This document shows, in pieces, positions 1 to 15,902 of a stretch of 15,902 bases of DNA. Below the pieces are notes generated by a model that was not told the origin of the DNA, searched no databases, and was given only the letters and a program-made list of their open reading frames with translations. Within the stretch, counting starts at the first letter, position 1. Each line of letters starts with the position of its first letter. Position numbers and translations under genes: made by a program. The stretch is from Verrucomicrobiota bacterium (lineage in GTDB: Bacteria; Verrucomicrobiota; Verrucomicrobiia; Limisphaerales; CANJSG01), in contig JBBQXJ010000096.1 of NCBI GenBank assembly GCA_038209745.1, forward strand, positions 1-15,902, written 5' to 3'.

Positions 1-1
1 C

Positions 2-1126
2 CCGCTGGAGCTGGGCGAGCGCGCCTTCGAGATCGTGCTCGCGCGGCGCATGGCCGCGGGCGAGGTGCAGACCACCTGGTTTGCCCGGCACGGCTCCACG
101 CCCATCACCGAGCTGCCGCGCCATTGGCCCGCCGCGTATCGGGAGCTGGTCGAGCGCCGCCTCCGCCGCATCGCCGACGACCCGAACATCCGCCTCATCG
201 AGCAGCCCGAATACAAGCGCCGCTGGAACACCGAGCCGTGGGACGAGCAATTCACCCGAGCCGCCCGCGACTGGCTGCTCGCCCGGCTGGAAGGCTACTT
301 CTTCGAAGGCGACCGCGTCTCAAAGCCCGACGCCGAAAGCGCCCGTGCGACCCGCACCTTCGCCCCCGCCACCCGCCCCGCCTGCACCACCACGAACCAA
401 CTGGCCGAAATCGCCAAGACCGACCCCACCTTCCAAGCCGTCGCCGAGCAGCTCCAGGGCGGCCCCGGCTTCTCCGTCCCCAAGCTCGTCCGCGAACTCG
501 TGGAAAGTGCCAGCGTCCCCGCGCTCCCCGCCCAGCGCTACAAACCCAGCGGCCTGCTCAAGCGCCACGATTGGGAACACGTCTGGGACCTCCAGCGCCG
601 CGAAGACGCCATCGACGCCGCCGAAAAGGTGAACGAACCCGGCATCAAGGACTACGAGCGCCTGTCCCGGCAGAAGCAGGCCAACGCGCGCAAGAAGGCC
701 GAGCTTGGCGACATCCCCGTGCCGCCAAAGTATGGCAGCGGCGATTTCAAGAAGTCCGTCTGGTGGTCTCTTCGCGGCAAACTCGACGTGCCGAAGGAGC
801 GCTGGATTTCTTATCCCGGCACCGAGCGCACCGAGGATCCCAGCCCCGTCATCGCGTGGGCCGGATGGGATCACGCGCAACAGGCGCGGGCGCTCGCCGA
901 ATACTACGTGGACGCCAAGCAGACCTTCGCTTTCCCGCCCGAAAAGCTGAAGCTCCTCCTCGCCGGCCTGCTCGAACTGCAACCGTGGCTGAACCAGTGG
1001 CGCCACGAGATCGACCACAACTACGGCACCAGCCCCGCCGAAGCGATCAAGGGCTTCCTCGACGCCGAGTGCCAAACTCTGGGCGTGACGCGGGAGGATC
1101 TGGAGAAGGTGCGTCTGGGCTCGTGA
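2..1126 (+). CDS. pglX: BREX type 2 adenine-specific DNA methyltransferase PglX, C-terminal part (5' end outside the window)
   Basis: The frame is open from base 2 (PLELGERAFEIVLARR...). It has C-terminal motifs typical of BREX-2 PglX: ERAFEIVLAR, WFARHGSTP, IEQPEYKRRW, WDLQRRED, IPVPPKY, LRGKLDVPKERWISYP and WAGWDH. It lies upstream of pglY-pglZ-brxD-brxHI. The catalytic MTase motifs are not in the window. Confidence 0.92.
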   Translation, partial: PLELGERAFEIVLARRMAAGEVQTTWFARHGSTPITELPRHWPAAYRELVERRLRRIADDPNIRLIEQPEYKRRWNTEPWDEQFTRAARDWLLARLEGYFFEGDRVSKPDAESARATRTFAPATRPACTTTNQLAEIAKTDPTFQAVAEQLQGGPGFSVPKLVRELVESASVPALPAQRYKPSGLLKRHDWEHVWDLQRREDAIDAAEKVNEPGIKDYERLSRQKQANARKKAELGDIPVPPKYGSGDFKKSVWWSLRGKLDVPKERWISYPGTERTEDPSPVIAWAGWDHAQQARALAEYYVDAKQTFAFPPEKLKLLLAGLLELQPWLNQWRHEIDHNYGTSPAEAIKGFLDAECQTLGVTREDLEKVRLGS

Positions 1127-1133
1127 TTGCCGG

Positions 1134-1161
1134 TGGACTAAAGTGCGACTTTTTGTAGATT
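1134..1161 (+). promoter_or_regulatory. Putative sigma70-type promoter with a palindromic operator for the Xre-RES TA module (probably leaderless)
   Basis: TGGACT (1134-1139), 16-bp spacer, TAGATT (1156-1161), then ATG at 1168 six nt later with no SD. The inverted repeat AAAGT-gcg-ACTTT (1140-1152) lies in the spacer. This is an AT-rich patch in a GC-rich context. Confidence 0.55.
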
Positions 1162-1167
1162 TCCGCC

Positions 1168-1752
1168 ATGCCAACGACCATTGAACGTCCGAGCCAACGA
1201 CCCAAAACAGTTCGCATCGCCTCCGAACCGAAATCGAAGGCCCCGTTCGGGACGATCGTGAGGACCTACGAACACTCGAAAGCCGGGCAAACCCTTGGGC
1301 AGATCGAAGAGGTTCTCAGCAAGCGGCCCGAGGCGGATGCCCAGGAGATCTGCACCGAGGTCGCGAGACTGCTGAGGGAGCTGGACGCCGCCCAGGCGCC
1401 ACAGATGGTTCTGCCCGAACTGCACGATCCCGCGACCGGTCGGATCGACGCGCAGAAGGTCGCCGACTTCATGGGGGTGCCGCTCAAACAGCTCTCGGAG
1501 GGACTCGGCCTCAACTACAAGGCCGTGCACCGCAACCCGTGCGCCCCGGCCTTCCAAAAAGCGCTGATCCCGGTGAAAAGCTCGCTCGAATACCTCAAGC
1601 AAGCGTTTCCGAAGCCGGAGGTCATCCGGGCCTGGCTGAACACGCCGCACCCGATGCTGGAGGGAAAAACCTCCTTGGAAACCATTCTCGAAGGCAAGTC
1701 GTTCGCGATAGTGCGTCTGCTCGGGAACGCGTGGGAAGGCGTGGTCTCCTGA
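1168..1752 (+). CDS. Xre/MbcA/ParS-family antitoxin (HTH plus C-terminal toxin-binding DUF2384-like domain)
   Basis: HTH-like segment IDAQKVADFMGVPLKQLSEGLGLNYKAVHR. The C-terminus RAWLNTPHPMLEGKTSLETILEG matches the WL..P...L.G..P pattern of MbcA/ParS/Xre. Its stop overlaps the RES start (TGATG at 1750-1754). Confidence 0.88.
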   Translation: MPTTIERPSQRPKTVRIASEPKSKAPFGTIVRTYEHSKAGQTLGQIEEVLSKRPEADAQEICTEVARLLRELDAAQAPQMVLPELHDPATGRIDAQKVADFMGVPLKQLSEGLGLNYKAVHRNPCAPAFQKALIPVKSSLEYLKQAFPKPEVIRAWLNTPHPMLEGKTSLETILEGKSFAIVRLLGNAWEGVVS

Positions 1753-2339
1753 TGCACAAAGAAGCGCGCCTGAAGGCGGCATTGACCAAGGCGAAACGGG
1801 TCGCCGTGCATGGCCCATGGTCACGGGCGGTCGAGTTTCGGCACCTGCACACCCGGAAGCCGGCCCCGTTGTGGGGTGGCGCTTCGAAGATCCACGGGGC
1901 GAGGTTCACGCCCAAGAGCGGCTTCGAAAGCATCTATCTGGCGTGGGATTCGGTCACGGCGTTGGCGGAGGTGCAGTCGCTGGCATTCCTCGCGGGAAGC
2001 CTCTTTCAGCCGCTGGCACCGCCTTGGGTGTTGATGAGCGTCAAAGGGATTGTGAGCGGCGTGCTCGACCTCACCGATCCCGCAACGCTCAATGCCTTGG
2101 GCACGAATGAACAGGAGATCAGTGGCGCTTGGCTGACATCGGCACACCCTCCAACGCAGTTGCTCGCGCAGGTGGCCTACGATTCCGGCATCGTCGTCGG
2201 CATCAAATACCCGTCGGCCCGGAACGTGGGCGGCGGGGTCAATCTGGTGGTCTTTCCGGACCGGTTGCCGCTGGCCGCGACGGACTTTCTGGAGGTCTTC
2301 GATCCGCACGGAAACCTGACCCAGCGGATCGGTGCTTAG
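1752..2339 (+). CDS. RES-domain toxin (NAD+-consuming / ADP-ribosyltransferase fold), 195 aa
   Basis: Start reassigned to ATG 1752, coupled to the antitoxin stop. RES motifs present: GARFTP (R), IYLA..S.TALAEV (E), VLDLTD, GIKYPSAR (S) and NLVVFPD. Confidence 0.9.
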   Translation: MHKEARLKAALTKAKRVAVHGPWSRAVEFRHLHTRKPAPLWGGASKIHGARFTPKSGFESIYLAWDSVTALAEVQSLAFLAGSLFQPLAPPWVLMSVKGIVSGVLDLTDPATLNALGTNEQEISGAWLTSAHPPTQLLAQVAYDSGIVVGIKYPSARNVGGGVNLVVFPDRLPLAATDFLEVFDPHGNLTQRIGA

Positions 2340-2370
2340 CGGGCGAGAAACAGGAACCAACCGACTCCAT

Positions 2371-5300
2371 ATGCCCACTCTGCTGAGAGACCTGATCACG
2401 ATCCCCGAGCACGTCGCCAAGGGCGACTTCGTGCTGAAGCTGACGGAGGGAACCGACCCGGCGAAGGTCAAGGCGACGCTCGACAGCTATGTGGTGACCC
2501 CGCAGCTCGCCGCCTGTTTCGACGCGGCGCTGAAGCTCGTCCAATCGGCGCTGCAAGGCTCCAGCAAGGCGGCCTACCTGCACGGGAGTTTCGGGTCCGG
2601 CAAAAGCCACTTCATGGCGGTGCTGAACTTCCTGCTGGCGGGCAACGCGGACGCGCGCTCGATCAAGGAACTGGGCGACGTGGTGGCGAAGCACAACGAG
2701 TGGCTGGTCGGAAAAAAGTTCTTGATGGTGCCGTTCCACCTGATCGCGGCGAAGGACTTCGAGTCGGCCATTTTCAAGGGCTATACCGACTACGTTCAGA
2801 AGCATTTCCCCGATGCCCCGTATCCGGCGCTCTTCAACTCCGACGCGCTGCTCGCCAACGCCCAACAGCAATGCGCGAACATGGGCGACGAGACGTTTTT
2901 CACGAAGCTCAACGAGGGCAAATCCGGCGCCGGTGGCGGTGGCGGCTGGGGCGAACTTGGCGCGAAGTGGGACGCGGGTTCGTTCAAGCAGGCCTGTCAG
3001 GCGGCTCCGACCGATGAAAAGCGACGTCGGCTCGTCAGCGATCTCGTGGAGACGCACTTCCCGGCGATGCGCTCGACCTCGGAGTTCGTGAGCATCGACG
3101 ACGGGCTCTCGATCATGAGCGCGCACGCGAAGGCGCTGGGCTTCGACGCGCTGATTCTCTTCCTCGACGAACTCATCCTCTGGCTGGCGAGCCACGCGGC
3201 GAATGTGGATTTCGTGAGCCGCGAAGCGCAGAAACTGCCGAAGCTCGTGGAGTCGCAGAACGCGAACCGACCCGCGCCGATCATCAGCTTCGTCGCCCGT
3301 CAGCGCGACCTGCGGGAGCTGGTGGGCCAGCATGTCGCCGGAGCGGAGAAGATGGGCTTCGTGGACGTGCTGAACTACTGGGAGGGTCGATTCGACACGA
3401 TCAAACTCGAAGATCGCAACCTGCCGGTGATCGCCGAGAAGCGCATTCTCAAACCGAGGTCGGAGACGGCGCGTGCCCAGATCGACCAGGCGTTCCAACA
3501 GACAAAACACTTCCGGGATGAAGTGATGAAGGTGTTGCTGACGACGAAGAGCAATCCCGACGATTTTCGGAAGCTGTATCCCTTCAGCCCCGCGCTCGTG
3601 GAAACGCTCGTGGCCGTCTCGTCGCTGCTCCAGCGGGAACGCACGGCCATCAAGGTGATGGTGCAGCTCCTCTCCCGGCAGCGCGACACGCTGGAACTCG
3701 GGGAGATCATCCCGGTCGGCGATCTTTTCGACCTCATTTCCGAGGGCGACGACGCCTTCAGCGCGGGAATGAAGGCCTACTTCGACGAGGCCAAGAAGCT
3801 GTATGAACAGAAGCTCAAGCCGATGCTGGAAGCACGGCACGCGCTGAACTTCGAGGACGCGATGGCGCTTCCAATCACCGATGCCAAGCGCACGGCGCTG
3901 CGCAACGACGACCGGCTCATCAAGACCTTGCTCCTCGCCGCGCTGGCACCGGAAGTGGAGTCGCTCAAGAACATGACGCCGCAGCGTCTTGCGGCGCTGA
4001 ACCACGGCACGATCAAGTCGTTCATCCCGGGCCAGGAAGCGAACGAGGTGCTGCGCAAGTGCAAGGAGTGGGCGGCACACGGCGGGGCGCTCCAGGTGCA
4101 GGAGGGCGCGGGCGGCACCCAGACGATTTCGATCCGGATCACCGGCGTGGATTTGCAGCCGATCCTCGAGAACGCCGAGAACGTCGACAACTACGGCAAC
4201 AAAGTGGCGCGGCTGAAGATGCTGGTCTTCGAGACCCTCGGAATGCCGGAGCATCAGGAGCTTTTCTTTCGTCACGAGTTTCGCTGGCGCGGCACCGACC
4301 GTCAGGCAGAAGTTTGCTTCGGCAACATTCGCGAAATCAGCGACGACCAACTCGAAGCGCGCGGCGAGGAATGGAAGGTCGTGATCGACTATCCGTTCGA
4401 CCGCGACGGCTACAACATCAACTGCGACCTCGAAAAACTGGACACGTTCCGCGCGACCTTCCCCGCGCAGCGCACCATCTGCTGGCTGCCGAGCTTTCTG
4501 AATCACGAGGCGCAGAAGGCCATCGGGACGCTGGTGCGTCTGGAGCACATCCTTTCGGAGAATCGCTTCAAGACGTTCGTGGCGCACCTTTCGGAGCAGG
4601 ATCAGGCGGCGGCAAAACCGTTGCTCCAGAACCAGCGCGACCAGCTCCACAACCAGCTCCGCAACCAGATCGAAGCGCTCTACGGGCTCCGGCCCGCGAT
4701 GCCCCAATACGCGGACACCACCAACCAGCTTGATCAGGCGGATCACTTCCAAGCGCTCTGCGAACTCAAACTGAAACCACCAGTCGCACCCAACCTCCGC
4801 GACGCGCTCAACGGTCTGCTTCATCAGGCACTCGAATTCCAGAATCCCGGACACCCGACCTTCGAGGACGAGACACGCTTCACCAAAGCGAACGTGTCGA
4901 AGGTGCTGGAGATCGTCGAACAGGCGCTCGCGACGACGGAGCCGAGCATCCATGTGAACGATTCGCCGGTGCGCACATTGGCGCGGCTCATCGCGAATCC
5001 GCTGCGGCTTGGCGAAATGCACCAAAACCGCTTTCAACTTGGGCACCATTGGCGGGGACATTTTGCCCAACGCCAGGCCCGCGAGGCGGGCCAGCCGGTG
5101 ACAGTGGCGAAGTTGCGCGCATGGATCGATGAGCCGCAACGCATGGGTCTGCCGCGTTTTGCTCAGGATCTCGTCATCCGTGCCTGGGCCGAGCAGACGA
5201 ATCATTCCTTCGCCATTGGCACTGTGGCCGTGCCGCCGCCCGCGCTCGGTGAACTGCAGGACGACATGACCCTGCGCGAGGTTGCCCTGCCAAGCGGGGA

Positions 5301-6192
5301 CGAGTGGAAACAGGCGGTGGAACGCGTGAAAGCGATCTTCGGATTCGATGACACGTCGCCGCTCGTGAACGCGAACAACGTCTCCGTGCTGTGTTCCAAG
5401 GTCCGCGCGCGCATCGAAGAGTTGTTGCCGAACTCGCAGTTGCTCGAAGCGGAACTCGATAGAACCGGGCCACTGTTTGACCTCGAACCGCGGAGTTTTT
5501 CGCGGGTGCAAACGACCAGCGAGGCGGTCGTGCTGCTCAAGGCGCTCAAGAACACGGCCGGTGAACTGCCCTTTGTGAAGGTATTGGTCACCCATCAGCT
5601 CGCAACCAAGCCCCTCGTCCTGAGCCACAGCATGAAGACTGCGCCTCACGTGACGCGCGCGGTGGAAACCATCCAGTGGGCGTTGTTCAAGGCGCTGCAA
5701 GCGGTGACGGACGCTCGCGCTGCCAGCGCGAAGGCTTTGGTCGCCGAGCTTTCTGACGCCTTTACACGCGATGAGATTGCGGTCGGCTTTCAAGCGAAAT
5801 CGACCGACCTGGTGAACCGGGCGGTGGAATTGCTGGCGGCGACACCCGCGTCTCCGCCACTGCCACTGCCTGGGCCTCCGACTATCGAGCCTCCGGTAGT
5901 CATTCCTCCACAGCCGCCAATCGTTCCGCAGCCGCCTCCCATCACGAAGCGGGTCCGTCGGAGCCAGATCAAGGAAGATGGCATCCCGCCGTGGGTTCCC
6001 GAGGGCCAGCGCAGCCTTGCGTTGGTCGAGGTGAATGTTCCGCGCGCGACTGGCGGCTCCGAGCAAATCGTGGTCACCGGCACGACTGCCAGGCTGATCG
6101 AGATGGCCGGCGACGCCATTTACGAAGCGGGGAAACTTCGCTTTCCGAAATGGGGATGTGAGGTCGGAGTCGAAACCCGCACCGAGGAATAG
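2371..6192 (+). CDS. pglY: BREX type 2 ATPase PglY (BrxC family), 1273 aa
   Basis: Likely start ATG 2371 (MPTLLRDLITIPE...DFVLKL). Walker A YLHGSFGSGKSHFM, Walker B LILFLDELILWLA, plus SFVARQRDLRELVG, YPFSPAL, LQRERTA and RLAALNHG, all typical of PglY. It lies between pglX and pglZ. Confidence 0.93.
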   Translation: MPTLLRDLITIPEHVAKGDFVLKLTEGTDPAKVKATLDSYVVTPQLAACFDAALKLVQSALQGSSKAAYLHGSFGSGKSHFMAVLNFLLAGNADARSIKELGDVVAKHNEWLVGKKFLMVPFHLIAAKDFESAIFKGYTDYVQKHFPDAPYPALFNSDALLANAQQQCANMGDETFFTKLNEGKSGAGGGGGWGELGAKWDAGSFKQACQAAPTDEKRRRLVSDLVETHFPAMRSTSEFVSIDDGLSIMSAHAKALGFDALILFLDELILWLASHAANVDFVSREAQKLPKLVESQNANRPAPIISFVARQRDLRELVGQHVAGAEKMGFVDVLNYWEGRFDTIKLEDRNLPVIAEKRILKPRSETARAQIDQAFQQTKHFRDEVMKVLLTTKSNPDDFRKLYPFSPALVETLVAVSSLLQRERTAIKVMVQLLSRQRDTLELGEIIPVGDLFDLISEGDDAFSAGMKAYFDEAKKLYEQKLKPMLEARHALNFEDAMALPITDAKRTALRNDDRLIKTLLLAALAPEVESLKNMTPQRLAALNHGTIKSFIPGQEANEVLRKCKEWAAHGGALQVQEGAGGTQTISIRITGVDLQPILENAENVDNYGNKVARLKMLVFETLGMPEHQELFFRHEFRWRGTDRQAEVCFGNIREISDDQLEARGEEWKVVIDYPFDRDGYNINCDLEKLDTFRATFPAQRTICWLPSFLNHEAQKAIGTLVRLEHILSENRFKTFVAHLSEQDQAAAKPLLQNQRDQLHNQLRNQIEALYGLRPAMPQYADTTNQLDQADHFQALCELKLKPPVAPNLRDALNGLLHQALEFQNPGHPTFEDETRFTKANVSKVLEIVEQALATTEPSIHVNDSPVRTLARLIANPLRLGEMHQNRFQLGHHWRGHFAQRQAREAGQPVTVAKLRAWIDEPQRMGLPRFAQDLVIRAWAEQTNHSFAIGTVAVPPPALGELQDDMTLREVALPSGDEWKQAVERVKAIFGFDDTSPLVNANNVSVLCSKVRARIEELLPNSQLLEAELDRTGPLFDLEPRSFSRVQTTSEAVVLLKALKNTAGELPFVKVLVTHQLATKPLVLSHSMKTAPHVTRAVETIQWALFKALQAVTDARAASAKALVAELSDAFTRDEIAVGFQAKSTDLVNRAVELLAATPASPPLPLPGPPTIEPPVVIPPQPPIVPQPPPITKRVRRSQIKEDGIPPWVPEGQRSLALVEVNVPRATGGSEQIVVTGTTARLIEMAGDAIYEAGKLRFPKWGCEVGVETRTEE
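5842..5946 (+). repeat. Low-complexity proline-rich linker near the PglY C-terminus
   Basis: Encodes TPASPPLPLPGPPTIEPPVVIPPQPPIVPQPPPIT. Confidence 0.8.
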
Positions 6193-6195
6193 CCC

Positions 6196-8889
6196 GTGAT
6201 TCTGACGGAAGGCCAAATCAAAGCGCAGGTCCGGTCGATTCGGAAAAAAGCGAATCGCTCCGCCGTCGCGTTTGCACTGCGCTCGGATGGGCCTTGGAGC
6301 GGGCCGCCGCGAGTGACGATTGATAACGTGCCGCACCGCGTGGCTTTTTGCCGTTCGGATCTGGAACTGCGCGAGCTCCTGCGTTCCGCCAGCGCTGAAA
6401 ACGAGCCTCTCGTGGCGCTGTGTCCGTTCGACAGCGCCCAACTCGGGGAGGATGTGCTCGCACGTCTGGCCAAGCGCCGGGTGCATCCACCGCAGCAGAT
6501 GGAGATTCTGGGAACTCTCTTTCAGGCGACCTCGGTTGACTCGCGAATCCTCACAAACGTCCCGCTGACGAATGCTCTCGTGGAGCACGCGCCATCGGAC
6601 GGCTACACGCCCGTCGCCGCCGGAGTTCTCGACCTTCAAACGGCGTGGAGCGAACTGCTGAGCCGCGCGCTGGGTGATCGCGAAGTGGCGACGAGTGTTG
6701 CCCGATTGCTGGAGGCAACGCTCGATGCAGGATTCCGCGGCCGGCTCGAAAAGCTGCCGTTTGAGCTGCGGCGGGAATTCTTCGGCTGGGCCGCACTGAA
6801 CGTCGACCGCTCGGGGGTATGGATGGCCTACCTGGTCAACGCCGGCAGAACTTCGGATCTGGTCCCCCTGGGCTTGCTGCTCGGGCTCGCCTTCGATCCG
6901 TCTTTGAACGCGCACGCCGAAACCGCTTCGGCACGGGTTCGTCTGGAGAGCTGGTTCGGGGGGCTCAACATCGACGGAGGAGCCGCTCGAAGTTGGGCCG
7001 CCGCCTCTCGGGCAGTCATTATGAGCCTTCGTCAGAAGGCCGGCTCACGTCCTCTCATTTCGACAATCCTGAGCCGCTTCGATGCGCTGCTCGCAGAATT
7101 CAAAATCTCGGATGCGGCAGTAAAAAGCGATTTCTCGCCGCTTGGGTTCGAGCAGAGGGTGCGTCTCTTCGCCGGCGTTCTTAGCCTGACGACCAAGCCA
7201 GCAGCGGTTCCGAGCCGCGAATCAAATAAGCTCGGAGAGGCCATCGACGCTTTGCAGAACCACCTGCTCGCCGGGGAAAGTCGGCCACGCATCGAGCGAT
7301 GCCAGATGGCGGCCCGCCTCGCCTGCTGGTTGGGAGAAGGCGCGAAGCTGACCGACGGTCCTTCGCTCGACGAAATGGTCGCTGGTTACGCGCGACTCGG
7401 CGGATTCATTGACTGGGCAAAAACCATCGTCCATGAAGGCGATTCCGAGCCCATACTGAACAAGTCCTTTGATTCGCTGCTCGCACGAGCGGACGCCATT
7501 TGTTCGGCATTCGAGGCGAATTTTGCGACGAAGCTCGCAGATTGGACATTGCACGGTTCGGCCCCCAGCGCTTCGTTCGTTCCGATCGAGAACACGCTGG
7601 AGAGCCTGGTAGGCCCGCTCGCGGCACAGGTGCCCGTGCTGCTGCTGGTGATGGATGGAATGAGCGTCGCGGTGTTCCGAGAATTGATCGGCGACATCGT
7701 GCAGCGGGGTAATTGGCTGGAGTGTCAGCCGGCGCAGCCAAAGGCACCGGCCGCTCTGCTCGCGACCGTGCCGTCGATCACGGAGGTTTCGCGGCGGGCT
7801 TTGTTTCGCGGGAAACTTCATCCCGAGTCCACCCCGACCGAGCAAAGTGCCTTCAGCGCGAACGACAAACTGTTCTCGCTGTGCGGCGGGCTGACCCGGC
7901 CCGTGCTCTTCCTGAAGGGCGATCTCCAAACAGCGGGCGAAGCGGGGCTGGCTTCGGATGTGAAAGCTGCGATTGCCAACAAGAAGTGCCGCGTGGTGGC
8001 GACAGTGCTCAACGCCATCGACGATCATCTCAGCGGCTCGGATCAGATCGCCCCGAGGTGGGATCTCGATTTTGTTCGGCCATTGCGTGAACTCCTCCAG
8101 GTCGCCGCCGAGGCGGGCCGCGCCGTCGTTCTCACGAGCGATCATGGACATGTTCTGGAACATCAGACTTCGCTCAAGCCCGGCATGACGAACGGCGGCG
8201 ATCGGTATCGCGCCGACGGCGGAGCGCCATCGGAAACGGAGCTGCGCGTCGCAGGACAGCGGGTTCAGCAAGCGATTGGGCGCACGGAGGTCACCGTGGC
8301 CTGGTCACGCAACATTCGATACTCGAGCAAAAAGCGCGGCTATCACGGGGGCGCCAGTCCACAGGAGATGGTGATTCCTCTCGCAATCCTCATCCACCGA
8401 AACAGCGTGACACCGGAGGGTTGGTCGGAAGCCGCGCCGTCGCCTTTTTGGCCCGACTGGTGGCGTCTTTCGCTCGATCAGCATAGCTTCGCGACCATCA
8501 CGGCCGTCCCCGAAGTGGTCACCAAGCTTACTGCTGGACTGGATCTGTTCACCCACGCCGCAACGAAGGCGCGTGCAGACGACTGGATCGAGAAGCTGCT
8601 CGATGGAGAAATCTACGCTGCGCAGTGCAAACTGGCGGTGCGCGGCGCTCAAGATCGGAAGCGGGTTGCCTTGTTTATCGAATCTCTCAGCTCTCGCGGA
8701 GGAACGATGCCCCGCGAGGCGATGGCCGAACGATTGGGGCTGCCACTGATGCGACTCAACGGCGTCGTTGCGGACATGGCTCGCGTTTTCAATCTGGATG
8801 GCTACGACGTGGTGAACATCGACGCCGCGAGCGGAACGATCGCGCTCAATGTCACTCTCCTAAAGAAGCAGTTTGCCGTCGTCGAATAA
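6196..8889 (+). CDS. pglZ: BREX type 2 PglZ (alkaline phosphatase superfamily phosphodiesterase domain with C-terminal winged helix)
   Basis: PglZ metal-binding motifs LLVMDGMS, TVPSITEVSR, NAIDDHL, VLTSDHGHV and GYHGGASPQEMVIPL. C-terminal wHTH-like segment ...AERLGLPLMRL...FNLDGYDVV. GTG start 3 nt after the pglY stop. Confidence 0.94.
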   Translation: MILTEGQIKAQVRSIRKKANRSAVAFALRSDGPWSGPPRVTIDNVPHRVAFCRSDLELRELLRSASAENEPLVALCPFDSAQLGEDVLARLAKRRVHPPQQMEILGTLFQATSVDSRILTNVPLTNALVEHAPSDGYTPVAAGVLDLQTAWSELLSRALGDREVATSVARLLEATLDAGFRGRLEKLPFELRREFFGWAALNVDRSGVWMAYLVNAGRTSDLVPLGLLLGLAFDPSLNAHAETASARVRLESWFGGLNIDGGAARSWAAASRAVIMSLRQKAGSRPLISTILSRFDALLAEFKISDAAVKSDFSPLGFEQRVRLFAGVLSLTTKPAAVPSRESNKLGEAIDALQNHLLAGESRPRIERCQMAARLACWLGEGAKLTDGPSLDEMVAGYARLGGFIDWAKTIVHEGDSEPILNKSFDSLLARADAICSAFEANFATKLADWTLHGSAPSASFVPIENTLESLVGPLAAQVPVLLLVMDGMSVAVFRELIGDIVQRGNWLECQPAQPKAPAALLATVPSITEVSRRALFRGKLHPESTPTEQSAFSANDKLFSLCGGLTRPVLFLKGDLQTAGEAGLASDVKAAIANKKCRVVATVLNAIDDHLSGSDQIAPRWDLDFVRPLRELLQVAAEAGRAVVLTSDHGHVLEHQTSLKPGMTNGGDRYRADGGAPSETELRVAGQRVQQAIGRTEVTVAWSRNIRYSSKKRGYHGGASPQEMVIPLAILIHRNSVTPEGWSEAAPSPFWPDWWRLSLDQHSFATITAVPEVVTKLTAGLDLFTHAATKARADDWIEKLLDGEIYAAQCKLAVRGAQDRKRVALFIESLSSRGGTMPREAMAERLGLPLMRLNGVVADMARVFNLDGYDVVNIDAASGTIALNVTLLKKQFAVVE

Positions 8890-8892
8890 CGC

Positions 8893-10218
8893 ATGACACC
8901 AACCATCAGCCCACGGCGCAGAGAACAAGTGCTGGATGCCCTCCGGCGGGGAACCGTGCCGCAGGAAGGCCTCGGGAGCCTCTCGGTTGGGTTGGAGCGA
9001 TTTCAAGCCACGGTTGCGGAAGACTTGGATCGCGTGGCTGCGGGCGGAGGCGCGTTCAAAGCGATTCGGGGCGAGTATGGTTGCGGGAAGACGTTCTTTT
9101 CCAGGTGGCTGCAAGAGCAGGCGCGTGCGCAAAAATTTGCGACTGCTGAGGTTCAAATCTCGGAGTCCGAAACGCCACTGCATCGCCTGGAAACAGTCTA
9201 TCGCCGACTGACGGAGCGGATCGCGACGGCGGCGGGATCGTCGGGCGCGTTCCGCAGCATCATCGACACTTGGTTCTATGCGCTCGAGGAGGACGTGCTC
9301 AGCAGCGGCAAAGTGGCGAGCAACGATCAGGCAGCGCTGATCGCCGCCACGAACACGTTGATGGAGCAAAGGCTGGATTCCATCTCGCGCACCGCGCGCG
9401 GTTTTGCTGCGGCGTTGCGTGGCTATCGAACCGCGCTAGCCGGCGGTGACAATGCGACGGCGGAGGGACTGATCGCGTGGGTAGCTGGCCAGCCCAATGT
9501 CTCCGCCACGATCAAGCGAGCGGCGGACTTGAAGGGTGACGTGGACCACTTTGCCGCACTGAGCTTCCTGCAAGGTCTGCTGGTTGTGCTCCGCGACTCT
9601 GGGCATCCGGGGCTACTGGTGGTGCTCGATGAAGTCGAAACCCTCCAGCGCGTCCGGGCCGACGTGCGTGAGAAGAGTCTGAATGCGTTGCGCCAATTGA
9701 TCGACGAGATCGACGCTGGTCGCTTTCCCGGTCTGTTTCTCGTCATCACCGGAACGCCTGCGTTCTTCGACGGCCCGCAAGGTCTGCAAAAACTCCCCCC
9801 ACTAGCACAGCGTTTGCAGACGGACTTCGACACTGATCCCCGCTTCGACAATCCGCGTGCGCCACAGATTCGCTTACGTGCTTTCGACCGCCCTGCTCTG
9901 GTGGAAGTGGGCATGAAGGTGCGGGACATTTTCGTCAATGGATCGAAGGACGCGGAAGGCGTCGCCCGGCGGGCAAACAATGCTCTCCTCGAATCGCTGG
10001 CCGATGCTGTGACCGGTCAACTCGGCGGCAAGATCGGGATCGCCCCGCGGATCTACCTCAAGAAGCTGGTCGCTGACTTGCTGGACCGCATCGAACTTCA
10101 TCCGGATTTCGATCCCGCAAAAGACTATAGGCTGACCATGCGCAACGAGGAACTGACGGCGGAAGAGCGCAACCTCACTGCGGCCACTTCGGTCGAGGAC
10201 ATCTCCCTCGACGTGTGA
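8893..10218 (+). CDS. brxD: BREX system ATP-binding protein BrxD
   Basis: N-terminal DALRRGTVP..GL, Walker A RGEYGCGKTFF, EVQISE.ETPLHRLETVYRR, Walker B LLVVLDEVETLQR, and FDNPRAPQIRL. Immediately follows pglZ. Confidence 0.93.
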   Translation: MTPTISPRRREQVLDALRRGTVPQEGLGSLSVGLERFQATVAEDLDRVAAGGGAFKAIRGEYGCGKTFFSRWLQEQARAQKFATAEVQISESETPLHRLETVYRRLTERIATAAGSSGAFRSIIDTWFYALEEDVLSSGKVASNDQAALIAATNTLMEQRLDSISRTARGFAAALRGYRTALAGGDNATAEGLIAWVAGQPNVSATIKRAADLKGDVDHFAALSFLQGLLVVLRDSGHPGLLVVLDEVETLQRVRADVREKSLNALRQLIDEIDAGRFPGLFLVITGTPAFFDGPQGLQKLPPLAQRLQTDFDTDPRFDNPRAPQIRLRAFDRPALVEVGMKVRDIFVNGSKDAEGVARRANNALLESLADAVTGQLGGKIGIAPRIYLKKLVADLLDRIELHPDFDPAKDYRLTMRNEELTAEERNLTAATSVEDISLDV

Positions 10219-12323
10219 ACGCCTTCGACCGCCTAGATCCGCTCGTTCAGCACCACGTCGTCAATTCGCTTGGATGGCGGTCGCTGCGGCCACTGCAAGA
10301 GCAGAGCATCGAACCCATTCTTGACGGCAAGCATTGCCTGCTACTCGCGCCCACCGCCGGCGGCAAAACCGAGGCTGCGATGTTTCCGATTTTCTCTCGG
10401 ATGATCGACGAGAAATGGAGCGCGCTCAGTGTCATTTATGTCTGCCCCCTCAAGGCGCTTCTGAACAACCTCCAGCAGCGACTCAACCACTACGCAACGC
10501 TCCTAGGACGCCGTTGCGAGGTCTGGCACGGGGACATTTCCAGCAATCGGAAGGACAGTATTCGAGACACGCCGCCCGACGTTCTCCTCACGACGCCAGA
10601 ATCGCTGGAAGGAATGCTTGTCTCCGTCAATCCGCTCGGTCGGCAGATGCTCGCGACAGCTCGCGCGGTTGTGATCGACGAAATCCATGCTTTCGCGGGC
10701 GGCGACCGTGGCTGGCACCTGCTCTCGGTTCTGGAGCGAGTCGCTCATCTTGCGGGCCGTGAGCTTCAACGAATCGGCTTGTCCGCGACCGTAGGCAATC
10801 CCGACGGATTGCTGGAATGGGCCGCCGGACATTGCAACGGCGAACGCCAGGTCGTCTCTCCTCCCTTCAGCACCAACGCGACACCGGAGATCGCTCTTGA
10901 TTTCGTAGGCAGCCTGGAAAATGCCTCAGTGGTCATCTCCCGGCTTTATCGCGGCGAGAAGCGGCTCGTGTTTTGTGATAGCAGGAGTCGGGTGGAGGAA
11001 CTGGCCAGCGCGTTACGGAACCACGGCGTCGAGACTTACCTCTCGCACAGTTCACTCAGCATTGAGGAACGCCGTTCGGCGGAGAAGGCGTTCATGGAAT
11101 CCCGGAACTGCGTCATCGTTTCGACGAGCACGCTGGAGCTTGGGATCGACGTGGGCGATCTCGACCGAGTCATTCAAATTGACGCGCCTGGTTCCGTCGC
11201 ATCTTTCCTTCAACGATTGGGCCGCACGGGGCGGCGCGCGGAATCCGGCCGGAACTGTCTCTTTCTGGCTACCAGCGAACGAGCACTGCTAAAGGCAGCC
11301 GGGCTGCTGGAACTGTGGAATAGTGGGTTCGTCGAACCCATCAAGCCTTCGCCGCACCCGCTGCACATTTTTTCGCAGCAACTGATGGCGGTAACGCTCC
11401 AACTTGGCGGCCTTGGCATCGCGGACTGGCGCGACTGGATCGGCCGGGTGCCTCCCTTTGCTGCGCTTGAACCCGGTCAAGTTGAAGCGATCCTTCGCTT
11501 TCTGAAGGAACAACGCATTCTCTTTGAGGACTCAGGGATTCTGAGCTTAGGAGTGGAAGGAGAGGAGCGATTTGGTCGGCGTCACTTTCTCGAACTTCTT
11601 TCCGTATTTTCGACGCCGTTCATGCTCACGGCATTTCATGGAAACCGTGAACTCGGGCAGATCGAAGCGGGATACCTTACGCGCGCCCGGGACGGGGATG
11701 GAACCAGGATCGCGCTCTGTGGACGCTCATGGCTGGTTCGGGAAATCGACTGGCGCACCCGAAAGGTCTCAGTCGACGAATCCACCGACAAGGGACGCGG
11801 TGCTTGGATCGGGAGCGGTCAAGGTCTAAGCCACTACCTAGCGTGCGCAGTGAAGCGGGTCCTGACTTCGTCGACCATCTCCGACCTTTGGAGCTCAAGG
11901 GCCAAAACCGCGATGGCGTCGATCCGGAGCGAGTTCGGCTACCTGAAAACGGAAGGCCATTCGCTGGCTGTGCAGAGAAATGCCGGGAGCGTCTCTTGGT
12001 TCAATTTTGCCGGAGGCGCAGTCAACGAACTCATTGCGGCTTACCTTGCCAAGACAAAGGGCATCGCCTGTCAACCGAACAGCCTCGCGATCCTGTTTCC
12101 AACCTGCTCCGATCCGACGGGGTTGCTGACGCTGCTTCGCGATTTGGATCCACGGCAAATCGAGGAAAGCACGACATTTGACGCGCGCGCTGTTGAAGCG
12201 CTCAAGTTCCATGAGTGCCTACCAGATGAATTGATCCAAACCGTCCTGAAGAGCCAGATGGTGGACAAATCTGCGCTGGATGCAGCGCTCTCCAGCCAAA
12301 CGACGCCGGTCTACTTGGGCTAA
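10215..12323 (+). CDS. brxHI: BREX type 2 Lhr-like DEAD/DEAH-box helicase BrxHI
   Basis: SF2 motifs: Q motif LRPLQ, APTAGGKT (I), PLKALLN (Ia), TTPESLE (Ib), DEIH (II), LSAT (III), STSTLELGIDVG (V) and QRLGRTGRR (VI). 4-nt GTGA overlap with brxD. Canonical last gene of type 2 BREX. Confidence 0.9.
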   Translation: MNAFDRLDPLVQHHVVNSLGWRSLRPLQEQSIEPILDGKHCLLLAPTAGGKTEAAMFPIFSRMIDEKWSALSVIYVCPLKALLNNLQQRLNHYATLLGRRCEVWHGDISSNRKDSIRDTPPDVLLTTPESLEGMLVSVNPLGRQMLATARAVVIDEIHAFAGGDRGWHLLSVLERVAHLAGRELQRIGLSATVGNPDGLLEWAAGHCNGERQVVSPPFSTNATPEIALDFVGSLENASVVISRLYRGEKRLVFCDSRSRVEELASALRNHGVETYLSHSSLSIEERRSAEKAFMESRNCVIVSTSTLELGIDVGDLDRVIQIDAPGSVASFLQRLGRTGRRAESGRNCLFLATSERALLKAAGLLELWNSGFVEPIKPSPHPLHIFSQQLMAVTLQLGGLGIADWRDWIGRVPPFAALEPGQVEAILRFLKEQRILFEDSGILSLGVEGEERFGRRHFLELLSVFSTPFMLTAFHGNRELGQIEAGYLTRARDGDGTRIALCGRSWLVREIDWRTRKVSVDESTDKGRGAWIGSGQGLSHYLACAVKRVLTSSTISDLWSSRAKTAMASIRSEFGYLKTEGHSLAVQRNAGSVSWFNFAGGAVNELIAAYLAKTKGIACQPNSLAILFPTCSDPTGLLTLLRDLDPRQIEESTTFDARAVEALKFHECLPDELIQTVLKSQMVDKSALDAALSSQTTPVYLG

Positions 12324-13397: not shown

Positions 13398-14222
13398 GTG
13401 GCGGTGCGGAGCGCGGTGAAACGCAATCGGGACGAACAAGGGCAGATGGATCTGTTCACGGCGTCCTTTCCCAAAAATGAACCCTCAACCGAAACGCCCC
13501 GCGTCGACGTTCTGAAGCGCCGTAATCCAGTTCTGGCTGAAAGCCGGCTTCCTCCGACCAGTCCGGTGGTCGAAGACCCAGCCGCGATTCCGTCGGTTCT
13601 CCTTTCGCCAACCAGACCTGAGCCCGAACCGGAGGTTCAGCGTAACCAGCGCAACTACCGGATCACCGAGGCCGACCAGTTGGGTCGCGGTTCGGCTCGG
13701 CACAAGTGCCGGGACAACCTGGCCGCCATCGGGTTGCTGAAGCGGCTGGAAGAGGAGGCCCGTTCCCCCACCGCCGAGGAAAATCGGACGCTCGTGCGCT
13801 ATGTCGGCTGGGGTGGCCTGCCGCAGGCATTCGACGACTACAACGCGGTGTGGGCCAAGGAACGGGAACAGCTCCAAACCCTGCTCACGCCGGAGGAACT
13901 CGCATCCGCCCGCGCTTCCACGCTTAACGCGCACTACACCTCCCCCACCGTCATCCGCGCCATGTATGCGGTCCTGGAGCGGTTCGGGTTCAACGGAGGT
14001 CGCATTCTCGAACCGGCCTGCGGCATCGGCCATTTCATCGGGCTTTTGCCGGAGACGATGAACGCTCGTTCCCAGATCACCGGAGTCGAGATCGACTCTT
14101 TGTCCGCCCGCATCGCGCGAGCGCTCTATCCCGACGCGGATCTGCGCCATCAACCGTTCGAGGAGACGGTTCTGCCGGACGGGTTCTATGACGTGGCGAT
14201 CTCGAACATCCCCTTCGGGAAC
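13398..14222 (+). pseudogene. Fragment 1: N-terminal methyltransferase part of the DarB-like protein
   Basis: NYRIT, NLAAI.LLK.LE, RYVGWGGL, STLNAHYTSP (motif X), ILEPACGIGHF (motif I, SAM binding), TGVEID, DVAISNIPFGN (motif IV). Homology-like sequence stops at the palindrome. Confidence 0.88.
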
Positions 14223-14252
14223 TTATGTGGAGCTCCACATAAGTTCCCGAAG
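14213..14252. repeat. Perfect 40-bp palindrome at the deletion junction
   Basis: CTTCGGGAACTTATGTGGAG|CTCCACATAAGTTCCCGAAG equals its own reverse complement, with no spacer. Confidence 0.97.
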
Positions 14253-14580
14253 CCCACCACTTCAAGAACCTTTTCTATGTGACGAAGATGACCCGCGTGG
14301 CGGGACTGCCGCAGACCGCGTCGCAAAAAGCGTTGGACCTGTTCCTGAAGGTCTCGCATCTGCACCGGGTCCAAGGCGGTGTGGTCTTCGCCACCGGCAC
14401 GCCCATCGCCAACAGCGTCGCCGAGATGTTCACCATGCAGCGTTATCTCCAGATGACGGCGCTGAAAGGGATGCAGATCGACCACTTCGACGCCTGGGCC
14501 GGCACCTTCGGCGAACCGGTCACGGCGATGGAGCTGGCCCCGGACGGTTCGGGCTACCGGCTGAACACGCGCTTCGCCCG
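14249..14580 (+). pseudogene. Fragment 2: helicase motif II-III region
   Basis: Reads EAHHFKNLFYVTKMTRVAGL...VVFATGTPIANSVAEMFTMQRYL...FDAWAGTFGE...YRLNTRFAR. The D of DEAH is lost at the junction. Confidence 0.88.
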
Positions 14581-14606
14581 TTATGCCGCGCGCGGCATTA
14601 CGCCCG
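14575..14606. repeat. 20-bp palindromic insertion flanked by a 6-bp direct repeat (CGCCCG), a net +26 bp frameshift
   Basis: CGCCCG-TTATGCCGCG|CGCGGCATTA-CGCCCG. The core ATGCCGCGCGCGGCAT (14583-14598) is perfectly palindromic. Removing 14581-14606 restores in-frame YRLNTRFARFINVPELM. Confidence 0.93.
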
Positions 14607-15789
14607 CTTCATCAACGTGCCGGAGCTGATGCAGGTCTTCCGGCAAGTGGCCGACATCCAGACGCAGGAGATGCTACAACTGCCCATACCCGCGTTGCAC
14701 TGCGGCAAACCCACGACGATCAGCGCCCCGTGTTCGGCGGAGTTGAAGCAGATCGTGCAAGGTCTGGTGGCACGGGCCGAAGCTCTGCGCTCTGGCTCGG
14801 TCGATCCCCGGGTGGACAACATGCTGCTCATCACCTCCGACGGACGAAAGGCCGCGCTGGATCTGCGGCTGATGAATCCCTCGATGCCGGACCATCCGAC
14901 GAGTAAGGTGAACCTCGCGCTCGAACAGGTCTTCAACCTGTGGCGCGAGACGACGGAGAAACGTTCGGCCCAGTTGGTGTTTTCCGATCTATCGACGCCC
15001 ACGAGTGGCAAGGGGTTTTCCGTCTATGAAGACATGCGGGACAAGCTGGTCAGGCTGGGTGTTCCTTTGGAGGAGATCGCCTTCATCCAAGATTTTGACG
15101 CGGACAACGCCAAGCTGGCGCTGTTCCGCGCCGTGCGCGCGGGGAAGGTTCGTGTGTTCTTCGGCAGCACCCAGAAGATGGGTTCCGGCACCAACGTGCA
15201 GGAACGGCTCGTGGCCCTGCACCATCTCGACGCCCCGTGGCGACCGGCGGATGTCGAGCAAAGGGAGGGCCGGATCTTGCGGCAGGGCAACACCAACGCC
15301 GAGGTCCACGTCTTCCGCTACGTGACCGAAGCCAGCTTCGACGCCTACATGTGGCAGACATTGGAGACGAAGGCGCGGTTCATCGCGCAGGTCATGACCG
15401 GCGCGAGCAACCTGCGCCGCATCGAGGACGTCGACGGCGCCGCCCTCACCTACGCCGAGGTCAAGGCCATCGCCTCCGGCAATCCGCTGGTCGTGGAGAA
15501 GGCCAACCTCGACGCCGAAGTCGCCCGGCTTTCCCGCTTGGAAGGCCAGCATCGCGAAGCCCAGTTCCGCCTGCGCCATCGTCTGCGCGCCGAGTCCGAC
15601 GACCTGCCCCGGCTCTACCGGAGACTGGAGGCATTACGGAAAGATGTGGCCGTCCGCGAGGACACGCGCGGCGACCGTTTCGTCTTCCACTTGGACGGCG
15701 AGACCCTGCGTGATCGGGGCGTGGTCGGAGAACTCCTCAACCGCCGGGCCGACCGGATCAGAGTAAGCGTCCTGCCGAGCACCGGTTGA
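14607..15789 (+). pseudogene. Fragment 3: helicase C-terminal (motif IV-VI) region and coiled coil, probably truncated
   Basis: FINVPELM, DNMLLITSDGRKAALDLRL, QLVFSDLSTP, VRVFFGSTQKMGSGTNVQERL, HLDAPWRPADVEQREGRILRQGN, FDAYMWQ, LTYAEVKAIASGNP. Coding-like codon usage fades near 15760, just before the stop. Confidence 0.88.
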
Positions 15790-15790
15790 A

Positions 15791-15842
15791 GGCATAGATG
15801 TCGTAGCGATAGGCTATGACATCTATGCCGCGCTATGCCGCG
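15791..15842. repeat. 17-bp inverted repeat (1 mismatch, 5-nt loop) overlapping a 2x10-bp tandem repeat
   Basis: GGCATAGATGTCGTAGC (15791-15807), GATAG loop, GCTATGACATCTATGCC (15813-15829). CTATGCCGCG occurs twice (15823-15832 and 15833-15842). Confidence 0.9.
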
Positions 15843-15902
15843 ATTTTGTGGAGGGGCTGGCGGGATCTGGCCCAAGCGGCGGGGAGGATCTCGGGGAGCT
15901 GG

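Follow-up and report, generated by a model that had tools for sequence, protein, structure and literature searches.

The right-hand end of a 15,902-nucleotide stretch of DNA from a Verrucomicrobiota bacterium (GenBank assembly GCA_038209745.1, contig JBBQXJ010000096.1; the whole stretch is called the window below) carries the remains of a gene for a fused DNA methylase and helicase that has been interrupted three times, at two palindromic lesions that we call scar 1 and scar 2 and at a third lesion that ends the contig. The window is the entire contig (C96) of a draft genome of 140 contigs, 4.58 Mb and 63% G+C that is 92% complete. A preliminary description of this DNA had read the three lesions as related palindromic scars and raised the idea of a process that adds sequence to DNA in order to inactivate or repair it. 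We think it likely that scars 1 and 2 are instead lone end palindromes from elements of the recombinase-in-trio (RIT) type, left behind when the elements were lost, and that the third lesion is an unrelated insertion of an IS66-family element. The gene, its lesions and its alignment by tblastn to the closest relative (genome G001) are laid out in the window as follows.

13398..15762, plus strand: pseudogene, DarB-like methyltransferase with SNF2-type helicase, from tblastn to homologues and Pfam on its pieces
13407-14222: aligns with residues 4-261 of the closest relative
14213..14252, no strand: scar 1, a perfect 40-bp palindrome at a deletion junction
14243-14584: aligns with residues 1014-1127
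14575..14606, no strand: scar 2, a 26-bp insertion made of a 20-bp core and a 6-bp direct repeat
14599-15759: aligns with residues 1124-1510
15763..15902, minus strand: last 140 bp of an IS66-family element (five copies in the genome), with matches to IS66 profiles

Three intact counterparts of the gene turned up in the 61 genomes searched, as open frames of 1676, 1756 and 1726 amino acids, and the closest of these, from the same genus, encodes a methyltransferase, a ResIII/SNF2 helicase core and a Helicase_C domain; the pieces in the window match Methyltransf_25/11 and Helicase_C in Pfam. An N-terminal domain of adenine-methylase type, an (N/D)PPF-like motif (NIPFGN, at 14205-14222) and a fused SNF2/DEAH helicase, whose DEAH box follows scar 1, make DarB-like a fair label for the predicted architecture, assigned from domain layout and not by comparison with DarB of phage P1. 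Plasmid records label relatives of the gene as N-6 DNA methylase, SNF2-related protein or helicase-related protein, and it is a gene of this type, common on plasmids, that the three lesions jointly inactivate. A search of the whole genome found no copy of the missing middle and tail elsewhere in the assembly.

Scar 1 consists of two 20-nt arms that are 100% complementary with a loop of 0; of the genome's perfect zero-loop palindromes it is the longest. Its layout is a native target 6-mer, GGGAAC (14217-14222), a 20-bp core (14223-14242) that begins with the 10-mer TTATGTGGAG at 14223, and the same 6-mer inverted, GTTCCC (14243-14248). In a codon alignment, native DNA on the left ends at 14222 with the Asn codon of NIPFGN (TTC GGG AAC) and restarts on the right at GAA GCC CAC CAC, the Glu-Ala-His-His of the DEAH box, so that scar 1 joins homologue residues ~261 and 1014 with the loss of ~752 codons (2.26 kb). 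As the native right flank happens to start with GAAG, the symmetry continues for another 4 nt (CTTC/GAAG) past the 6-mer. The next four longest palindromes of the genome were considered as additional scars and rejected, as they are intergenic and look like terminators.

Scar 2 keeps its target fully and shifts the reading frame by +2. Its core (14581-14600), which begins with the 10-mer TTATGCCGCG at 14581 and is one mismatch short of a perfect palindrome, stands between two direct copies of CGCCCG (14575-14580 and 14601-14606), and the fold-back as a whole spans 24 bp (14579-14602, one mismatch). The closest relative reads ACG CGC TTC GCC CGC TTC ATC AAC at this point, which is the window DNA on both sides of the scar minus the extra bases. 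A possible likeness of this target to the one in YADD, hit by RITs that carry this core, was considered and rejected, as the two are out of register.

The two cores are related to each other and foreign to the gene, as the preliminary description had proposed when it quoted the 10-mers, which do lie where it placed them. Both are 20 bp long and have the form TTATG-X5|X5'-CAT(A/T)A, with all five inner pairs complementary in each (a chance of 1/1024 apiece), and the 4.58-Mb genome has only two matches to TTATG-N10-CAT[AT]A, namely scars 1 and 2, 358 bp apart. Alignment to the three intact homologues, which have no such bases at either scar, shows that they are not native. Apart from copies of the IS66 element, the 10-mers of the scars occur elsewhere in the genome only in ordinary coding contexts, and no dif-like or stem-loop variants of the core motif were found there. 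A search for a template of the core filler gave only chance-level 9- and 10-mers in the window and, in the three intact homologues, best matches with 1-2 mismatches in 10 at no meaningful position. Within the genus the pattern matches in two of seven genomes and is palindromic only in the window's own matches, and homologous gene loci from 10 other places hold no such palindrome.

Beyond the genus, the same form accompanies a particular kind of mobile element, and that the two cores are RIT end palindromes we regard as very probable, from the counts that follow and from direct association with recombinase genes. RIT elements carry the gene series ritA-ritB-ritC (passages of Van Houdt et al., 2012, PMC3414803, and Smyshlyaev et al., 2021, PMC8138268). 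In a scan of 400 genomes of the same order, in which about 150 of ~1,460 matches were listed, at least seven perfect 20-bp palindromes of the same form lie outside this genome among the matches listed. A gene for an Xer-like tyrosine recombinase stands directly beside the palindrome at 5 of 13 fetched loci of the order, extra single half-site copies occur near the palindromes, and one contig holds two runs of three recombinase open reading frames (ORFs), each with a palindrome at one end, one of which splits radC after its His-Asn codons.

Wider searches gave the same picture. A query for the scar-1 form with two free bases (NN) on each side, TTATGNNGAGCTCNNCATAA, matched at least 123 stretches with one genome taken per species; both NN pairs are complementary in 66 of the 79 distinct matches in fetched loci, where chance would give 1/16. 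The exact scar-1 core makes up 24 of these 79 species-genome matches, several of them beside recombinase trios, and matches of this form span many phyla. The corresponding query for the scar-2 form, TTATGNNGCGCGCNNCATWA, scanned on metagenome contigs, gave 85 distinct matches, with both pairs complementary in 72, and the perfect version of the scar-2 core is the commonest of them (34/85). With a profile built from the recombinases of the fetched loci, a tyrosine recombinase ORF was found within 400 bp of the palindrome in 24/79 matches of the scar-1 form and 35/85 of the scar-2 form, and the distance to a run of three was usually 90-130 bp; another 28 and 43 matches, respectively, could not be judged, as they lie too close to the edge of their locus. 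All three products of the trio are Xer-like by Pfam and NCBIfam, and these three tyrosine recombinases are the predicted movers of the element. Of the enzymes that the preliminary description had nominated (HUH, Cas1, reverse transcriptase, LigD/Ku) none is the enzyme of this family. An origin in REP/RAYT or IS200/IS605 elements was likewise rejected, as the motif occurs twice in the genome and the enzymes of the relatives are tyrosine recombinases, although no search was aimed at HUH genes.

These family data bear directly on the explanation that the preliminary description had listed first, an enzyme that adds a short motif at breaks, followed by snap-back synthesis. In its general form this explanation makes both scars products of double-strand break repair, by a sequence-adding enzyme or by snap-back synthesis with microhomology joining, and scar 1 does offer it an inverted copy of 10 nt of the left flank, the CGAAG common to the right flank and a large deletion at the same place. 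The filler, however, is neither random nor locally copied but a fixed 20-mer that stands beside recombinase trios in dozens of unrelated genomes, and scar 2 is flanked by a direct 6-bp repeat and not by a fold-back of its flank. A search with PF02735, which matched in a control genome, found no Ku gene in the 92%-complete genome. A conserved family filler, no nearby template and no Ku gene found do not make an end-joining scar; the fixed, widely shared 20-mers, which flank recombinase trios in many phyla, lend no support to motif addition at breaks, and we consider break repair largely refuted by the family evidence and very improbable as the source of the scars.

Intact elements show where the palindrome belongs. 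In the common layout the left end reads host, a 6-bp segment S, the palindrome [TTATG-X5|X5'-CATAA], a second 6-bp segment S2, a half-site, 6 bp and another half-site, and the right end reads the three genes, a half-site, 6 bp, a half-site, S and host; half-sites in these arrays are spaced at 17 nt. Of the 10 one-palindrome RITs with both ends readable, 6 repeat S without change at the far end, 2 repeat 5/6 of its bases and 2 at most 4/6. Because S recurs at the far end, the palindrome is part of the mobile unit and S acts as a 6-bp target repeat, which encloses an intact one-palindrome unit of 3.1-3.6 kb. As a rule S2 is S in reverse complement, or departs from this by at most two changes, and some RITs (at our loci L040 and L088) have palindromes at both ends. 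The palindromes extend into their flanks by lengths that peak sharply at exactly 6 nt. A minority of copies (L052, L093, L086, L203, L224 and L235) extend 9-12 nt instead, above chance, and scar 1, with 10 nt, belongs with them; these longer extensions may be palindromes that grow by template switching.

Measured against this anatomy, both cores in the window consist of back-to-back half-sites and lie in the 6-mer context of a RIT insertion, with CGCCCG on both sides of scar 2 and with GGGAAC and GTTCCC at scar 1. The further half-sites are absent at both scars, the window holds no recombinase ORF, and three adjacent, overlapping tyrosine recombinase genes are nowhere beside the scars, which are therefore RIT remnants and not RITs. 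Ends of similar kind have been described: passages of Van Houdt et al. (2012, PMC3414803) give RIT ends as an inverted repeat with an 'overlapping palindromic sequence', a passage of Nielsen et al. (2017, PMC5737581) reports palindromic ends of 47 and 51 bp and proposes hairpin intermediates, and the terminal repeats are cited as 34 bp in a passage of Idola et al. (2023, PMC10214605). RIT mobility was described as without experimental demonstration as of 2012 (PMC3414803), and the mobilization mechanism as still undeduced as of 2017 (PMC5737581).

The targets of RITs, read from their flanks, are conserved motif codons in genes of other mobile elements:

L026, L029, L048: radC, HNHPSG motif
L019, L020: two diverged IS66 transposase genes, hit at the same codon position
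L049, L105: read as istB, Walker B motif IDELGY, from flank translation and not from a family search
L080, L085, L087: group II intron reverse transcriptase

At L019 and L020, on two contigs of one genome (G309), diverged IS66 transposase genes are split in the RKNWLF region by RIT-type palindromes, one with inverted 6-mers and foreign DNA beyond, the other with an adjoining recombinase gene. The insertions that passages of Van Houdt et al. (2012, PMC3414803) report for RITs, into the radC gene of an integrative element and into a gene for a transposase, fit the same picture, and so do the scars, which sit in a gene typical of mobile elements. The scars resemble RITs further in that their cores are the same 20-bp palindromes as at the ends of trios in relatives, with matching 6-bp target repeats, and differ from them in having no recombinase genes, the end palindrome alone remaining.

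Palindromes without a trio are not confined to the window. At 27 of the 79 matches of the scar-1 form, with at least 1.5 kb of sequence on both sides, there is no recombinase ORF within 400 bp, and 22 of these lone palindromes are perfect; because one of the 27 (L087) carries far-end RIT half-sites, the count is an upper bound. Lone palindromes occur with inverted 6-mers, as in the at least seven loci with TCGGCC/GGCCGA around the scar-1 core and different outer flanks, and with direct 6-mers (L053, L080 and L184). In L080, a Frankia record, the lone palindrome at 4393-4412 interrupts the codons for YADD in a group II intron reverse transcriptase gene; GCCGAC flanks it at either side and the target is fully kept, which makes it an exact counterpart of scar 2. 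A further one (L074) stands at a break in an IS66 transposase domain. Pfam searches on the ORFs that flank lone palindromes returned usable answers at few loci only. On a metagenome contig (L191) a RIT-type palindrome likewise lies within the YADD codons in a reverse transcriptase gene of a group II intron. Neither footprints in the form of lone RIT palindromes nor deletions linked to RITs were found described in the literature that we searched, which did not include Ricker et al. (2013).

That so many lone copies share the core, and even the 6-mers at different loci (TCGGCC/GGCCGA, at least seven loci), could also mean that the palindromes of 26-32 bp are tiny non-autonomous mobile units of the RIT family, in effect minimal miniature inverted-repeat transposable elements (MITEs), that RIT recombinases acting in trans inserted directly, with no full element ever present at these sites; scar 2, which lost nothing of its target, would suit such a unit. 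A 20-bp unit, however, can neither circularise nor carry a complete site of arm, spacer and arm, the 2.26 kb of target missing at scar 1 is not explained by simple insertion, and in intact elements the palindrome belongs to a unit of 3.1-3.6 kb and lies within its 6-bp target repeat. We regard mini-units of this kind as improbable. The second explanation in the preliminary description, remnants of a hairpin-forming transposon, is for scars 1 and 2 close to the reading that we prefer, with the RIT family as the transposon, and fails for the third lesion.

That lesion is an ordinary insertion of a multi-copy IS66-family element, unrelated to the scars and not a scar itself. The same end occurs at four other places (C20, C21, C26 and C30), three of which are contig ends, without a difference in the overlap compared. 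C30 holds the full copy, which is 2,423 bp long and encodes a helix-turn-helix (tnpA-like) ORF, a TnpB_IS66 protein and a 509-aa DDE_Tnp_IS66 transposase, the transposase scoring 390 bits against NCBIfam NF033517 (cut-off 180) and the ORFs matching DDE_Tnp_IS66 at 1.5e-86 and TnpB_IS66 at 5.8e-34 in Pfam. Both ends of the element are alike and begin with GTAAGCG, which we take to be typical of the family, and its 8-bp target repeats pair contigs C24/C21, C30/C20 and C26/C70, which are thereby joined across IS66 copies. In gene content, ends and target repeats the element thus has no feature unusual for IS66. In the window the insertion removes the last ~166 codons of the methylase-helicase gene, and the contig stops within the element; no partner contig of C96, which would be expected to hold these codons, was found in the assembly.

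The features that had suggested a third related scar belong to this element. The fold-back at 15791-15829 is its subterminal inverted repeat, with a similar one at the other end, and the 10-mers, CTATGCCGCG twice at 15823-15842 and TTTTGTGGAG at 15844-15853, cover the stop (15833-15835) and last codons of the transposase gene, tnpC, whose 3' end lies within 15763-15902 on the minus strand. Each matches a scar core at 9/10, for which the nominal chance in a pre-named 140-bp region is ~0.0028 x 0.0049, a figure calculated post hoc. The palindrome with flanking 6-mer is absent here, as is the rest of the RIT end structure: the three half-site-like words in the IS66 tail are direct, spaced at 10-11 nt as against 17 nt in RIT arrays, and imperfect at CATAA in all three. 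These words are present in all five copies of the element. Their likeness to half-sites could be due to chance, to the CTATGNC repeats of IS66 itself, or to a former target site or remnant.

For scars 1 and 2 themselves, the next question is how a lone palindrome would come from a full element. It is probable, with slightly less assurance than for the combined reading stated at the outset, that full RITs once sat at both scars and left their palindromes behind. A one-palindrome RIT inserted at each scar would offer three recombination sites: an outer site A (host, S, half-site), an inner site B (half-site, S2, half-site) and a far-end site C (half-site, S, host). Recombination of A with C would be a precise excision that leaves nothing. 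Recombination of B with C in parallel alignment would remove the body of the element and leave S-palindrome-S, which is the structure of scar 2 with its 26 extra bases. Such an alignment could be open to them because CGCCCG and its reverse complement disagree at the two central bases alone. At scar 1 the partner of B would be a look-alike site 2.26 kb downstream, at the codons of Walker B (DEAH), and their recombination would remove the RIT together with the intervening stretch of the gene and leave S-palindrome-S2. RITs with palindromes at both ends would leave S-palindrome-S2 on excision, and an excised circle could re-enter a site that holds a lone palindrome. These particular pairings are a model that we consider somewhat less likely than not.

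The edges of the deletion bear on how scar 1 arose. The left edge is exactly the S2 boundary, with no base of the next half-site remaining, and the right edge lies directly after the Asp codon of DEAH, and this is also the phase at which RITs with the same core (L049 and L105) enter IDELGY, the Walker-B motif of genes read as istB; the exact S2 edge and this match in phase favour a recombinase cut over a random deletion. A template switch stimulated by the palindrome and passing through the shared CGAAG would give the same product.

Several observations weigh against the proposal that RITs were inserted and then lost. The step from a RIT to a lone palindrome is itself an inference. Its route to scar 2 needs inner and far 6-mers in the same direction, yet S2 is usually the reverse complement of S, and the mismatch in the scar 2 core is a further departure from the perfect form. 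The overrun of 4 nt at scar 1, with CGAAG common to the native right side, fits a deletion by microhomology or template switching as well as it fits recombination. When lone palindromes were removed in silico, the frame signal in these GC-rich loci was too noisy to count either way. No recombinase trio was found in the genome; its five tyrosine recombinase ORFs lie on five contigs, none adjacent to another, in an assembly that is 92% complete, so the source element of the scars is not in hand, although repeats are often left out of assemblies. For scar 2 there is in addition the matter of contig support: no listed Logan contig of run X1 lies over it (14570-14621), a gap that by itself is no evidence of absence, two contigs that start at 14622 account for the entire depth of that bin, and a record of run X2 (record 20, 14592-14642, with 5 differences and the rest unlike) may be an allele without the scar 2 insertion.

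The contig evidence also bears on artefact, the last explanation in the preliminary description. Runs X1 and X2 are two samples of one study, their contigs were built independently, and X1 contains 78% of the sampled words of the region. An X1 contig (record 1, 14007-14247) crosses the centre of the scar 1 palindrome, and an X2 contig (record 17, 14218-14437) spans this centre together with the right junction, each with 0 differences. Both records end at the two ends of a 30-base palindromic word, and because a word of this length breaks a graph built with k=31, these contigs alone cannot link the left flank to the right. A chimera of assembly or amplification would draw on that missing link, on the draft state of a genome in 140 contigs, on a read depth over the gene's contigs of only ~4-8 (52 at the IS66 end) and on the lack of a listed X1 contig over scar 2. 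Against it stand the independent contigs from the two samples, which carry the centre and right junction of scar 1, and the exact agreement of both scars with the RIT end structure of more than 100 other records, which an artefact would not reproduce. A chimera is accordingly unlikely at scar 1 on contig evidence and at scar 2 on grounds of pattern, and as an explanation of the scars together we consider it extremely improbable.

A second X1 contig (record 2, 14007-14223) is a variant of the gene, ~93% identical, that diverges from the window exactly at 14223, the start of scar 1, and it is probably from an intact copy of the gene in a related strain.

Short palindromic leftovers are familiar from other transposons. 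Nearly precise excision of Tn10 leaves short palindromic remnants of its inverted ends, flanked by the target repeat, and arises by replication slippage between repeats inside the long inverted IS10 ends of a DDE transposon. Scar 2 is like these remnants in outcome, a target repeat around a short palindrome of two element ends in a gene that is still broken. The likeness does not extend to the cause that we propose, as the ends joined in the scars are recombinase half-sites and the event would be site-specific recombination. Closer in enzymology are the SE elements and Tn554, described in passages of Idola et al. (2023, PMC10214605) as tyrosine-recombinase transposons that leave a 6-bp 'fingerprint/footprint'. 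As far as that account goes, they resemble RITs in placing the crossover in a 6-bp spacer beside inverted end motifs and in carrying over a 6-mer from the previous site, much as S2 of RITs behaves; they differ from RITs in their sets of recombinases and in their end motifs, and the SE footprint is a 6-mer beside an inserted element, whereas the scars are a 20-bp palindrome without an element.

A BREX-type cluster fills the left 12 kb (window 1-12323):

1168-2339: Xre-antitoxin/RES-toxin pair, within the cluster
2332-6192: DUF6079 protein
6196-8889: PglZ-like protein
8893-10218: BrxC/D ATPase
10215-12323: Lhr-like DEAD helicase

The genome-wide pattern scan found no RIT-type palindrome in the cluster, in agreement with the earlier remark that its 12 kb of genes hold no such scars. 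The gene beside it is dead through ordinary mobile-element traffic and not through a new DNA-inactivating enzyme.

The two scars, together with more than 100 relatives, give a grammar for RIT ends, a 6-bp crossover segment beside a back-to-back pair of half-sites, and the two kinds of leftover, with direct or with inverted 6-mers, predict which sites recombine. With the 20-bp signature, a class of lesions that break genes can be told from the random frameshifts or assembly errors for which annotation pipelines would otherwise take them, and plasmid, insertion-sequence and intron genes struck by another mobile element can be recognised. A bolder reading, which we offer as a possibility and consider doubtful, is that RITs specialise in parasitising other mobile elements at the codons of conserved catalytic motifs and can leave a permanent 26-bp palindromic frameshift or a recombinase-made deletion behind, so that the gene described here would be a record of repeated attacks by hyper-parasites and not of random decay. 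An NPPF-like methylase motif, the Walker B of a helicase and of IstB, YADD of a reverse transcriptase, HNHPSG of RadC and an IS66 transposase are among the targets seen, and if this reading is true, lone palindromes would be ready-made landing pads for later copies of the element.

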